Part shown: in pieces, positions 60,209 through 64,000 of the stretch | Layout of the letters: every line of letters begins with the position of its first letter | Position numbering within the stretch: position 1 is the first letter of the stretch | Assembly: GCA_038883335.1 (NCBI GenBank) | Contig: JAVZMI010000002.1 | Span: 9,242-73,241 of the forward strand | Reading direction: 5' to 3' | Source: Candidatus Bathyarchaeia archaeon | GTDB lineage: Archaea > Thermoproteota > Bathyarchaeia > Hecatellales > Hecatellaceae | Length of the DNA: 64,000 nt | Made by a program: the position numbers and the translations under genes | Notes under the pieces: generated by a model | Seen by the model: the letters and a program-made list of their open reading frames with translations, nothing else | The model's database searches: none | Told to the model about the DNA's origin: nothing

Positions 60209-61138
60209 CTATTTGCCGGTAGGGTAGGGTTTCGCAATTATTGTGAGACCCTTGATGCCCTCTATCTCCCGCCTCAAATCGCGTTCTATGGCGTCTTTCA
60301 ACTCACCTACCTTGTAGAGAGTAAGATTCCCGTCCACAATAATACATATCTCACCAGCAAGATAAGGCCCCAGCTTACGCAACTTTATGCTCTCAACTTG
60401 AACTTTGTAGACACCCTCCACGACCCTCTTGATTTTGTTAATGAGATCTGGGCAGTAGCAAGCGTCCACAAGAACCAGTGATGATTCCTTAATCGCCATG
60501 TACGCTATTTGGATGATGAAGCCGGCTATCACCATAGCACCAATTGCGTCCATCTGGTAGAAGCCTAGATATGCTGCGATGAGACTGGCGAAAATAATGA
60601 AGGACGCGGAGCCATCCTTAATCGAGTTATATGCGCCAGCCTTAAGTGAGACCATATTGTATTTTTGTGAGATGCGCCTCATCTGGAAAGCACGGTATAG
60701 GGAGATACATCCAGCCCCAAATATAGTGGCCAAAGCGATGTGAGGATAAAAGAGCTCTTGAGGGTTAATAAACCTTTGATAAGCTTGGTAGAGTATGTAG
60801 GATGCAACTCCCACCATCGCTATAGCTGTGACCAGAGCGGAGAAGGTCTCCACCCTAAAGTAGCCGTAATGGAACTTTTTGTCTGGAGACTTCATAGACA
60901 ACCTTAAGCCGAGCCAGACGATGAAAGATATAACCGCGTCGCCTAAAGAGTCAACTCCATCAGCAACCAAACCCACACTCTTACTTAACAGCCCGACGAG
61001 AATCTCAACTACTCCAATGCCCAGCAGAGTTAAAACTGATAATTTGGCGATCCTTTCGCCTTCTATGAAGCCACGGCTGTAATTATCCAACTTATCTTCA
61101 CTAAATATGAGGCATGTTAAAAAATGTACTCTGAACAA
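60209..61138 (-). CDS. cation diffusion facilitator family transporter
   Basis: 309 aa, 6 TM plus a C-terminal cytoplasmic domain. LVADGVDSLGD motif. Confidence 0.8.
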   Translation of the reverse strand: MFRVHFLTCLIFSEDKLDNYSRGFIEGERIAKLSVLTLLGIGVVEILVGLLSKSVGLVADGVDSLGDAVISFIVWLGLRLSMKSPDKKFHYGYFRVETFSALVTAIAMVGVASYILYQAYQRFINPQELFYPHIALATIFGAGCISLYRAFQMRRISQKYNMVSLKAGAYNSIKDGSASFIIFASLIAAYLGFYQMDAIGAMVIAGFIIQIAYMAIKESSLVLVDACYCPDLINKIKRVVEGVYKVQVESIKLRKLGPYLAGEICIIVDGNLTLYKVGELKDAIERDLRREIEGIKGLTIIAKPYPTGK

Positions 61139-61465: not shown

Positions 61466-61732
61466 TTATCCTATTTTCAGCTCTTGTCTTATAGCATTGA
61501 GCAACTCTTCTCTACTTGGGATTTTTCCTGAAGTCACAACTCTACCGTTGACCACAAGGCTCGGCGTGATCATTACGTTGTACTTATCAGCTTCTTCTGA
61601 GAACACAGTATACTCTTTTACTTCAACCGCGTTGCCGAACTCTTTAGCCACCTCTTCGGAGAGCTTGACTGCTGCCCTACATTTGGCACATGGCGGATCA
61701 GAGCCGAAGATTTCTATTTTTACTTTTGCCAT
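61466..61732 (-). CDS. small thioredoxin-fold protein (Thioredoxin_3-like, CxxC)
   Basis: 88 aa. KIEIFGSDPPCAKC ... ITPSLVVNGRVV. Confidence 0.65.
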   Translation of the reverse strand: MAKVKIEIFGSDPPCAKCRAAVKLSEEVAKEFGNAVEVKEYTVFSEEADKYNVMITPSLVVNGRVVTSGKIPSREELLNAIRQELKIG

Positions 61733-61743
61733 ATTTCAACCTC

Positions 61744-62685
61744 CTAACTTTCTTGCATATAAACCCTTACGACCAAAGGGATACTGCCTATGATGAAAGC
61801 AGTTATCGCAGCCAGCGCTATGGTGGTAAGTATGTAAACTAGTGCCTTCTTTGCTGTAAATATTCTTACGATCACTATCATGTTCGGTAGGCTGAGTCCA
61901 GGCCCAGCCAATAGAAGCGCCAGAGCAGGGCTCTTGCCCATTCCTAAACTTATAAGCGTATCCACAAACGGGGCTTCCGTAAGCGTTGCAAAATAGATTA
62001 GAGCCCCGAGCAGTGAAGCCAGAAATGTAGAGAGAAATGTATTTCCACCTAGCCAAGTCTGAATCCACTCCGCAGGTAGTATTTTACCAACAATTCCTAT
62101 GATAAATACGCCGACCAAGAGCAGTGGGAATATTAGTCTGACAAACCACAATGCCTCTTTAAGCCACACCTTAACAGAAGACACACCAAGCTTGAACCAG
62201 GCGTAAATAAACGTTATCACCATAGGTATAAGGAAGATGATAATCTTATGGAGATAGGGTCTCCCTACGCCAAGGTAGTTAGGTAAAAGAAGCGTAGCTA
62301 TAAGTATAATAAAGAGCACCATATGCTTTGAACTAGTTATCTGAGATCTCACTAAAGACGAGGGATTGCCAAATTTTTCGGTTCGTTTTCTCTCTTCTGA
62401 CCTGAAGACATACGTCATTATCAAGCCTACAATGAATGCGGTTGATACGGCGGCGACGATTCTCATAACAGCTATATCCAAACCGAGTATTGCCCCCGTA
62501 TATACTAGGGCTAGCAGGTTGGTCGCTGGCGCTGTCCAGAGTAGAATGAAGGCCGGCCCTAGACTGCTGCCCCTACGATATAAGCCGCTGGCTATTGGGA
62601 TTACTGTACAAGAGCAGACGGCTAAACCTATACCTGCAAAGGCTGCTAGCGGAAAAGATACTGTTTTCTTAGCGGTTGAACCCAT
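61744..62685 (-). CDS. predicted permease (COG0701/DUF318 family)
   Basis: 313 aa, about 8 TM. Paired with the downstream thioredoxin-fold gene, as is typical for this family. Confidence 0.6.
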   Translation of the reverse strand: MGSTAKKTVSFPLAAFAGIGLAVCSCTVIPIASGLYRRGSSLGPAFILLWTAPATNLLALVYTGAILGLDIAVMRIVAAVSTAFIVGLIMTYVFRSEERKRTEKFGNPSSLVRSQITSSKHMVLFIILIATLLLPNYLGVGRPYLHKIIIFLIPMVITFIYAWFKLGVSSVKVWLKEALWFVRLIFPLLLVGVFIIGIVGKILPAEWIQTWLGGNTFLSTFLASLLGALIYFATLTEAPFVDTLISLGMGKSPALALLLAGPGLSLPNMIVIVRIFTAKKALVYILTTIALAAITAFIIGSIPLVVRVYMQES

Positions 62686-62905
62686 ATACCGAAGTATGGT
62701 CTCCCTCGAAAGGAAAGCGGTTATCGCTCCAGCTAAGAGGAAGGCGGGAACCAGACAGGTTAATGTGTGGAGGGCTATGTAATCCTCTAACGCATAAAGC
62801 CCAGCAAAGATTAGATTAAATAGTAGAATATTCTTACCCCTCCTCTGCCTCTAGTCATCCCTTGGCTGACTCCGTTCAACAAGGGATAATATTTGAGATA
62901 TTTTA

Positions 62906-62936
62906 ATATATCGCTATATGCGAATATGTGCATATA
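62906..62936. promoter_or_regulatory. two overlapping AT-rich palindromes (ATATA-TCGC-TATAT and TATATGC-GAATATGT-GCATATA) in the divergent intergenic region
   Basis: Perfect inverted repeats read directly in ATATATCGCTATATGCGAATATGTGCATATA. Candidate operator and/or bidirectional TATA elements. Confidence 0.3.
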
Positions 62937-63045
62937 AGAATAAAACTTGCTAAAGGAGAAGCTTGAGCAATATGACTGAAACGAAAGAGACCTGGTTGCT
63001 GGGAAAAATACGCATGAGAATGTAATCTATGCCTGCTTTGGCGGT

Positions 63046-63411
63046 ATGTCAAACACAGGCATAGTAACTGCTCTTGCGAGTATTGAAGCAGTTAAGGAGT
63101 TGGGGCTACGAAAAGCCGCCATCGGATGTTTAGGCAGGCTTCCTACGAATGTGCTTTCTGTCCTTGGGAAAACCAGAACGGCCAAGAAAATCGTGACTGT
63201 TGATTGTTGCTCCTTCGAGTGCAGTAAGAAAATTGTTGAGAACTCTGGTTTTAAGGTTAGTAAAAATATCGTACTGGTGAGAGACATAGGCATGAAAAAG
63301 AAAGCGTTGCACGAAGATGTTGGCAGAAACTTGGGGTTGGCGAGTTACGTCTCAGAGGATGATGTGAGAAGGGCAAAGGAGCTAATCATTAAAGCAGTAA
63401 TGGAAGACTAG
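63046..63411 (+). CDS. DGC-domain-like putative zinc-binding protein
   Basis: 121 aa from the first ATG. The family-like N-terminal motif IYACFGGMSNTG begins 15 nt upstream of that ATG in the same frame, so the real start is unclear. Cys pair VDCCSFEC. Confidence 0.45.
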   Translation: MSNTGIVTALASIEAVKELGLRKAAIGCLGRLPTNVLSVLGKTRTAKKIVTVDCCSFECSKKIVENSGFKVSKNIVLVRDIGMKKKALHEDVGRNLGLASYVSEDDVRRAKELIIKAVMED

Positions 63412-63437
63412 ATTATTCGGCTAGGGCTGATGATTAA

Positions 63438-64000
63438 ATGGATGAAATTAGGAAAGTTAAACCGCCGCCGGAATATCCGCCTGAAGAGGGGTGCTTCCTG
63501 CGGGGCAATGATTATTCCCCTGTTGCTGTCTGCGTGCTCCTAGACACATTCTACGAAAAGATAACCCCCTGGCTTGAATTGCTGGTTCGCACGGGAATTG
63601 AGAGCGGTGCGGCCCTTGCAGGGTATCTTCAGACTGAGAATATTGGGGTGGAGAAGATAATCTGTAATGTTATCGCAAACACAAACATCAGATATCTAGT
63701 TGTTTGTGGGGCAGAGTCAGCTGGACATAGCCCTGGACAGACACTCCAAGCACTGGTTGATAACGGCGTTGATAGTAAGAGGTTTATAGTTGGTGCTGTG
63801 GCGCCTACGCCTTACCTCTATAATATACCTCTCGAGGCGATAGATAGGTTTCGGAGACAGATAACTCTGGTCAACTTGGCACTTGAAGAGGATGTAATGT
63901 TGGCGCGCAAACCTGAAATTATACGGGAAGCAGTACGGTGTTGCTATCAGGAGAAACCTACGCAGTTCATGAAGTGGACACTTTATGACAAGGGAGCATT
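63438..64000 (+). CDS. MtrA-like protein (tetrahydromethanopterin S-methyltransferase subunit A homologue), partial at window end
   Basis: YSPVAVC, QTENIGVEKIICNVIANTNIRYLVVCGAESAGHSPGQ and EAIDRFRRQI parallel remembered conserved MtrA segments (HTENLGIEK / NIRFxIVCG / ERFRRQI). Confidence 0.6.
   Translation, partial: MDEIRKVKPPPEYPPEEGCFLRGNDYSPVAVCVLLDTFYEKITPWLELLVRTGIESGAALAGYLQTENIGVEKIICNVIANTNIRYLVVCGAESAGHSPGQTLQALVDNGVDSKRFIVGAVAPTPYLYNIPLEAIDRFRRQITLVNLALEEDVMLARKPEIIREAVRCCYQEKPTQFMKWTLYDKGA

Follow-up and report, generated by a model that had tools for sequence, protein, structure and literature searches.

Organisation of the locus

The stretch under study is a 64-kb piece of the genome of a Candidatus Bathyarchaeia archaeon (hereafter the window; position 1 corresponds to position 9,242 of contig JAVZMI010000002.1). 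At its right-hand end lie two divergent gene groups, the second of which continues beyond the window; the contig was also read past the window end, and all coordinates are those of the window. Families were assigned by Pfam and NCBIfam profile searches. The minus-strand arm consists of the genes for a permease and a thioredoxin-like protein, and the plus-strand arm of those for a cysteine-rich DGC-domain protein, a soluble relative of the corrinoid protein MtrA (the MtrA-like protein) and an ArsR-type repressor (Table 1). With considerable confidence, we regard this locus as an ArsR-controlled, divergent detoxification unit of the arsenic type. What is new is the cobamide-type member inside an ars-type operon; the arsR-arsP-arsE-DGC set itself has already been described.

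A preliminary description of this DNA, made from the sequence alone, had recognised four families in a divergent unit, a permease/CxxC-thioredoxin pair facing a DGC/MtrA-like pair. The Pfam matches place Thioredoxin_3, ArsP_1 permease, DGC and MtrA exactly where they had been located, and the gene layout agrees. It is also correct that the MtrA-like gene stands outside any mtr operon, its neighbours being the genes for the DGC protein and ArsR. That no regulator gene lies between the arms is true of the spacer; a regulator exists nevertheless, as arsR is encoded just past base 64,000. It begins 2 nucleotides (nt) after the MtrA-like gene and closes the plus-strand operon. The GAGGGG sequence ahead of arsR lies within the 3' end of the MtrA-like gene, which suggests that the two genes are translationally coupled. 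The methyltransferase partners whose presence beyond base 64,000 had been considered did not turn up: neither MtrH nor another methyltransferase is encoded downstream of arsR on the contig past the window end, where a convergent Cbf5 gene is followed by a ribosomal-protein cluster.

Table 1. Features of the divergent unit (window coordinates; aa, amino acids; ORF, open reading frame).
Feature	Position	Strand	Evidence or remark
Thioredoxin_3 (PF13192), ArsE-like, 88 aa, CAKC	61466-61732	-	E 2.4e-19
ArsP_1 (PF03773) permease, AVCSCTVIP	61744-62829	-	E 7e-61 for ORF 61744-62685
Divergent promoter spacer, 142 nt, 37% GC	62830-62971		read from sequence, gene starts corrected
Inverted repeat TATATGC-N8-GCATATA	62915-62936		perfect; candidate ArsR operator
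DGC-domain Cys-rich protein, ~146 aa if read through	62972-63411	+	PF08859; E 2.6e-11 for 63046-63411
Soluble MtrA-like cobamide-type protein, 232 aa	63438-64136	+	PF04208; E 2.3e-38 for part inside window (63438-63998)
ArsR/SmtB repressor, 115 aa	64139-64486, past window end	+	NF033788, 81.9 bits, cut-off 55

The thioredoxin gene is located 11 nt downstream of the permease gene. Another 327 nt downstream of it, a cation diffusion facilitator (CDF) efflux transporter is encoded on the same strand (60209-61138, minus).

A soluble MtrA-like protein with a conserved cobamide site

The MtrA-like protein matches PF04208 over its full length (131.9 bits, cut-off 25; E 2.4e-38) and exceeds the cut-off of NF002126, the model of the soluble subfamily (172.3 vs 161 bits). 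Its score against TIGR01111, the equivalog model of true MtrA, is 126 bits, far below the cut-off of 249.15. As an annotation, the NF002126 name 'tetrahydromethanopterin S-methyltransferase subunit A' is misleading, since it wrongly implies methanogenesis genes in genomes without Mcr and the rest of Mtr.

Cobalamin contacts of MtrA listed by Wagner et al. (PMC4915002) are His84, Glu54, Thr53, Gly57, Asn64 and Tyr18. The cobalt ligand His84 of structures 5LAA and 8Q3V aligns with His97 of the MtrA-like protein, so the cobamide-binding histidine, which the preliminary description had singled out for inspection, is kept. Glu54, Thr53, Gly57 and Asn64 align with E67, T66, G70 and N77, and Tyr18 with F20. 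H97, T66, G70 and N77 are invariant among 28 homologues; the meander GAIPF.xEN is kept only in part (APTPYLYN). The AlphaFold (AF2) model of the protein has a predicted local distance difference test (pLDDT) value of 89.7, and a Foldseek comparison of this model with 5LAA and 5L8X gave a template-modelling (TM) score of 0.91. By sequence and fold the protein belongs to the MtrA superfamily with the cobamide-site residues kept, and it is predicted to bind a cobamide.

The C-terminal transmembrane anchor, also on the earlier list of features to look for, was not found in the MtrA-like protein. Its tail is charged (SEEEEAIIKRIKAAALKASELRGN), and residues 210-231 form one soluble helix in the model. 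Where the anchor would be, a soluble C-terminal extension is conserved (CYQE.PT.F…LYDPGAYPEPP.C.KITWR..PW, followed by a charged helix). Homologues continue for 20-25 more residues, as a K/E-rich helix running to LLxLL, which the host protein lacks. In some homologues a 2x[4Fe-4S] ferredoxin domain is fused to the N-terminus, and these fusions suggest redox cycling of the cobalt. A search of a plasmid collection yielded only distant DUF4346 proteins, and one of the Atlas nothing further.

Linkage of the MtrA-like gene with arsenic genes

Gene context was compared in a sample of 96 loci with the long soluble MtrA type, made up of genome loci and 80 loci from a metagenome scan. Ars genes located no more than 5 kb from the MtrA-like gene were (number of loci in brackets): ArsR (33), ACR3 (28), ArsP (25), ArsC of the low-molecular-weight phosphatase (LMWP) type (17), ArsM-like (9) and ArsA (4). 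Other families within the same distance were Trx3 (34), DGC (17), DUF169 (10), DsbD-like (10) and MtrH (3). At least one arsenic-specific (strict ars) gene was found within 5 kb in 48 of the 70 loci whose flanks extend for 3 kb or more, and the proportion was similar for long flanks (24/36 loci with at least 6 kb) and shorter ones (24/34 loci with 3-6 kb). Among strict ars genes up to 5 kb away, 111/124 share the direction of the MtrA-like gene, and the density of such genes falls 17-fold, being 4.4 per 10 kb in the first kilobase and 0.26 per 10 kb at a distance of 5-8 kb. None of 13 mtr-operon or short-form MtrA loci has a strict ars gene. The linkage of the MtrA-like gene with ars genes exceeds chance. 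No published description of an MtrA-family protein linked to ars genes was found in the literature searched.

The four families of the window were found together in other genomes too, as the preliminary description had proposed to check. Nine genome loci taken by themselves already display the linkage with ars genes. In hot-spring archaeal relatives, whose MtrA-like proteins are 72-78% identical to that of the window, the genes for Trx, (DGC), DUF169, ArsP, MtrA-like protein and ArsR follow each other in one direction, and the gap between ArsP and the MtrA-like gene downstream of it measures 10-14 nt in the closest relatives. One Bathyarchaeon has the order MtrA-like, ACR3, ArsR, and a Chloroflexota contig the order ArsR, ArsP, Trx, DGC, FeS protein, ACR3, DsbD-like, MtrA-like. 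The permease and the DGC protein of the window are 53% and 62% identical, respectively, to the Chloroflexota versions, while the permease shares just 26-28% identity with the permease adjoining the closest MtrA-like relatives. Judged by these identities, the module is a mosaic. In the window there is no DUF169 (COG2043) gene, a regular component of the closest relatives' ars cassettes (L004, L008, L011, L066-L070), where it separates the thioredoxin gene from ArsP.

Phylogeny of the MtrA-like protein

In a maximum-likelihood tree (quick search, with support from the Shimodaira-Hasegawa-like approximate likelihood ratio test, SH-aLRT, only), the MtrA-like proteins with ars context form a clade of 91 (SH-aLRT 94) on a stem of 1.65. 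This clade is separate from the MtrA of mtr operons (97*), from two MtrH-adjacent long-branch forms and from a short form of 155-160 aa. The window protein falls into a starred 15-member subclade whose gene contexts include ArsP, DUF169 and ArsR. The idea that the window gene is a remnant of the family's mtr operon is ruled out by the tree.

The regulator and the divergent promoter region

ArsR carries a C-V-C thiolate motif in helix alpha-3, where ERCVCDI aligns with ELCVCDI of CadC. CadC is the best solved match of this regulator, which is itself devoid of N-terminal cysteines.

The AT-rich core of the spacer (62897-62945) contains overlapping inverted repeats. The preliminary description had called the palindromes of the spacer strong. 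A perfect repeat does exist, and TATATGC-N8-GCATATA is its sole perfect copy in the 1.22-Mb genome; taken alone, however, it is not statistically compelling. Arms of at least 7 nt arose in 531 of 5000 shuffles of the spacer, and a repeat this good is equalled in 11-12% of shuffles of this AT-rich sequence, so that the palindrome was rejected as strong evidence. A repeat search of the spacer did not find inverted repeats with arms of at least 10 nt. The half-site ATGTGCATA recurs around arsR in a Chloroflexota locus (L010) and is taken as a lead only.

Unusual starts of the permease and DGC genes

The first canonical start codon of the permease gene is the ATG at 62685 (313 aa), but conserved coding sequence runs on for another 48 codons (62686-62829) within an open frame of 368 aa. 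Inclusion of this extension raises the ArsP_1 score from 206 bits for the 313-aa ORF to 247.6 bits, covering profile positions 2-293 of 294, and the added residues can be aligned to the N-terminal part of the Chloroflexota homologue. The likely start is the ATT at 62829-62827 (361 codons), located 9 nt after GGAGG in the Shine-Dalgarno (SD)-like sequence GGAGGGG. ATT is known as a rare start codon. The permease has the two hallmarks of the ArsP family, i.e. the PF03773 domain and a vicinal C-x-C pair (AVCSCTVIP) in the first half of the protein.

The DGC coding sequence is interrupted by a -1 frameshift. The ATG at 62972, with AGGAG 13 nt upstream (62954-62958), opens a piece of 12 codons reading MTETKETWLLGK. 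In the -1 frame the remainder reads NTHENVIYACFGG, with NTHENVIY and the first conserved cysteine (IYACFGG), ahead of the ATG at 63046. Together, MTETKETWLLGK and NTHENVIY match the N-termini of homologues (M.EEKEWQEGM.THENII). The PF08859 score (cut-off 27) is 43.9 bits from ATG 63046 and 53.1 bits, with the profile matched from position 1, when the upstream stretch is added; the first eight profile positions are encoded upstream of ATG 63046. The motif after which the family is named reads DCC instead of DGC in the window protein. The site of the shift, G GGA AAA (63001-63007), overlaps an A5 homopolymer (63004-63008) and has the form of a canonical slippery heptamer (X XXY YYZ), and the frame break may be an assembly error, a real frameshift or programmed frameshifting. 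A perfect 9-bp stem (CTATGCCTG…CAGGCATAG) at 63026-63063 encloses the internal ATG 63046. A role of this stem-loop as frameshift stimulator is not supported (z-score -1.8; it begins 18 nt past the heptamer). The two adjoining genes, for permease and DGC protein, thus both have odd starts.

Host genome

The host is a hot-spring archaeon, and the MtrA-like gene is the single MtrA-family gene of its genome (1.22 Mb, 98.9% complete), in which McrA was not found. B12-domain proteins are encoded, one of them MtaC-like. CobS and CbiB were not found in the genome, so that the host probably takes up its cobamides in complete form. Contig 8 carries an acr3-arsR pair apart from the unit.

The genome encodes one MtrH, unlinked to the unit, between a histidine phosphatase gene and CDC48. 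MtrH was considered as a dedicated partner of the MtrA-like protein and rejected: it is present in 6/6 carriers of the ars type, yet it occurs in 146 of 401 genomes of the phylum and in most of this class, irrespective of an MtrA-like gene, and it is linked in only 3/96 loci.

Comparison with known systems

The closest described counterpart is operon C (DND132_2311-2314, arsR5-arsP-arsE-DGC) of Pseudodesulfovibrio mercurii ND132, which is induced by arsenic and in which the functions of ArsE and DGC are likewise predictions (bioRxiv 10.1101/2022.10.17.512643). Both systems comprise ArsR and proteins of the PF03773 (permease), PF13192 (thioredoxin-like) and PF08859 (DGC) families. Operon C runs in a single direction and has no MtrA-like gene, whereas the window has two divergent arms and a gene for a cobamide-type protein between DGC and arsR. 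Features new in this copy are the divergent layout, the two unusual gene starts and a host that is a non-methanogen and probably a cobamide auxotroph.

With methanogen MtrA and its cytoplasmic homologues (5LAA, 5L8X, 8Q3V; PMC4915002), the MtrA-like protein shares the fold, the histidine ligand, the glutamate relay and the nucleotide-loop contacts. It differs from MtrA of the methyl-tetrahydromethanopterin (H4MPT):coenzyme M (CoM) methyltransferase in that a transmembrane anchor, neighbouring mtrB-H genes and a genomic McrA are all missing, and from the MtrA of mtr operons by its separate long-stem clade, its ars context and the soluble C-terminal extension that replaces linker and helix.

An analogy in logic exists with HgcA and HgcB, where a soft metal(loid) is the substrate of a corrinoid protein that is often encoded near arsR and has a 2[4Fe-4S] ferredoxin partner, which is fused in some MtrA-like homologues. 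HgcA is, however, a membrane-bound protein related to CFeSP, the corrinoid iron-sulfur protein, and methylates mercury; the MtrA-like protein is not homologous to it, and its activity is predicted. The C-As lyase ArsI and ArsM, the As(III) methyltransferase dependent on S-adenosylmethionine (SAM), occupy the same place in ars operons, beside ArsP or ACR3 pumps, as enzymes that attach methyl groups to arsenic or take them off. The MtrA-like protein is unrelated to them in fold and cofactor, and it does not replace ArsM-like proteins, which co-occur in 9/96 loci.

Pairing of a C-S-C permease with a small thioredoxin has been discussed for the SAO and SO_0444 systems, and the PF03773 ArsP family also includes Cu/Zn exporters (bioRxiv 10.1101/2022.07.06.499078). 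The pair in the window resembles SaoE/SaoT and SO_0444-type pairs in having a C-S-C permease of the TCDB ArsP family and a small thioredoxin-like neighbour. In contrast to SaoE/SaoT, the thioredoxin-like protein scores 22.3 against the SaoT cut-off of 65, and there are neither selenoproteins nor an SAO ABC transporter here.

Proposed function and alternatives

In the explanation that we favour, ArsR would bind the AT-rich dyad region between the two gene starts and, on loading of a trivalent arsenical at its C-V-C thiolate site, would release both arms. The permease, aided by the thioredoxin-like protein, would export a trivalent (organo)arsenical, and the MtrA-like protein would hold an imported cobamide in the His-on state and use it to convert arsenic ahead of export. 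That the MtrA-like protein carries out such a cobamide-dependent arsenic step is a prediction about as apt to be right as wrong, and the same even chance applies to the explanation as a whole. The preliminary description had surmised a corrinoid- or methyl-transfer-linked redox system; the setting is instead that of an arsenic-type (ars) detoxification operon.

Several findings count against this explanation. None of the arsenic-specific genes for ArsC, ACR3, ArsM and ArsA is present in the window. The permease scores far below the curated cut-offs of its nearest models (SaoE, 89.6 vs 325; SO_0444, 83.2 vs 300), and the thioredoxin-like protein, although it has the PF13192 domain and the CxxC motif, remains below the ArsE subfamily cut-off (TIGR00412, MTH895/ArsE; 52.9 vs 62 bits). 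An arsenic-binding cysteine triad specific to the ars clade was looked for without success; C90 and C169 are also present in canonical MtrA. No methyltransferase is linked, MtrH being found within 5 kb in the three loci mentioned above only, and the nine loci with an ArsM-like gene imply that the MtrA-like protein is no simple substitute for ArsM. Finally, the unit may be impaired, given the 48-codon permease extension without any ATG, GTG or TTG and the DGC frameshift at the heptamer.

Regarding the chemistry, we infer a transfer of methyl groups at arsenic and, as the likeliest form of it, demethylation, a tentative choice that is in itself rather unlikely to be the correct one. Co(I) would take the methyl group off methylarsenite, as an oxygen-free counterpart of ArsI; the arsenite produced would leave via an ACR3 pump encoded elsewhere, and intact methylarsenite via ArsP. 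Demethylation is favoured because many relatives pair the MtrA-like protein with the arsenite pump ACR3 alone, because it would be a sensible resistance step and because the only known lyase, ArsI, needs oxygen. ArsI requires O2, and the anaerobic route of arsenic demethylation has been described as unresolved, with corrinoid methyltransferases as suspects (2026 preprint). Another type of cobalt redox reaction has only a slim chance. The opposite direction, in which the MtrA-like protein in its methyl-cobamide form would methylate thiol-bound As(III) independently of SAM for export of methylarsenite by ArsP, is unlikely. It would fit the reported export of methylarsenite by ArsP-family permeases, the close spacing (10-14 nt) of ArsP and the MtrA-like gene behind it in the closest relatives and the ferredoxin-fused homologues, which recall HgcA plus HgcB; the stand-alone MtrH of the host could load the methyl groups. 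Yet the production of the more toxic methylarsenite (MAs(III)) inside the cell would be an odd step in resistance, ACR3 is the sole pump beside the MtrA-like gene in many loci, an ArsM-like gene is already present in nine, and MtrH is unlinked and common regardless.

Two further alternatives concern the substrate and the role of the MtrA-like protein. A thiophilic metal cation (Cd, Zn, Cu or Hg) in place of arsenic is a quite unlikely substrate of the unit, although CadC, with the same C-V-C-D-I, is the best solved match of the regulator, the permease comes nearest to SaoE and the Cu/Zn efflux family SO_0444 among NCBIfam models, a CDF cation exporter (60209-61138) is encoded next door and the window is free of arsenic-specific genes. 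CadC-type sensing also uses N-terminal cysteines, which the host regulator lacks; the permease is far below both curated cut-offs, relatives of the MtrA-like gene travel with ArsC, ACR3, ArsM-like and ArsA genes, and the ND132 operon of the same families responds to arsenic. A non-catalytic MtrA-like protein, acting as a chaperone or buffer that passes substrate to the pump or in protection or storage of cobamide under arsenic stress, would explain why the gene is coupled, at 0-30 nt, to three types of pump (ArsP, ACR3, P-type ATPase) that differ by locus, and why no dedicated methyltransferase is linked. The strict conservation of the whole cobamide site, including the His-Glu relay, and the ferredoxin fusions, which suggest redox turnover of cobalt, make such a role improbable.

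Equally doubtful is the view that the unit has lost its function and is a remnant undergoing decay in a reduced genome. The DGC frameshift, the permease without canonical start, the absence of the last ~20 residues of the homologues (K/E-rich helix, LLxLL) from the MtrA-like protein and the genome size of 1.22 Mb would be in keeping with decay. Against it, apart from these defects all frames are open and give good scores, the starts of the permease (ATT 62829), DGC (ATG 62972) and arsR genes have SD-like sequences ahead of them, ATT is a rare but generally known start, and the shift falls in a homopolymer, a common place for assembly errors, and at the same time on a textbook slippery heptamer.

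Returning to the favoured, cobamide-dependent arsenic step, it is conceivable, though we would not count on it, that the MtrA-like proteins of the ars clade are O2-independent cobamide enzymes which make or break the C-As bond, with DGC and thioredoxin as arsenic-handling partners. If so, they would be for arsenic what HgcAB is for mercury, either as methylarsenite demethylase or as arsenite methylase. In any case, a conserved and widely transferred protein within ars operons is a concrete candidate for O2-free demethylation and, being small and soluble, amenable to standard biochemistry.

Other MtrA-like genes

One subclade of MtrA-like genes (L048, L073-L078) is followed by genes for DUF5714, LplA-like lipoate-ligase domains and a GcvH-like protein, often with XdhC and ArsR-ACR3 nearby. 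Two divergent MtrA-like genes outside the ars clade (L049, L057) adjoin MtrH, one of them also a gene for serine hydroxymethyltransferase (SHMT), and look like a different MtrAH pair of the C1 type. The short (155-160 aa) MtrA-like gene, on a branch of 3.7 and without ars or mtr neighbours (L060, L061), stands alone in 48/56 genomes of one family (~1.6 Mb). In the family of the host, one genome (G002) has a full mtrEDCBAFGH operon and McrA, while the host and two other members are without McrA; a single family thus holds a member of the methanogen/alkane-oxidiser type alongside non-Mcr members.

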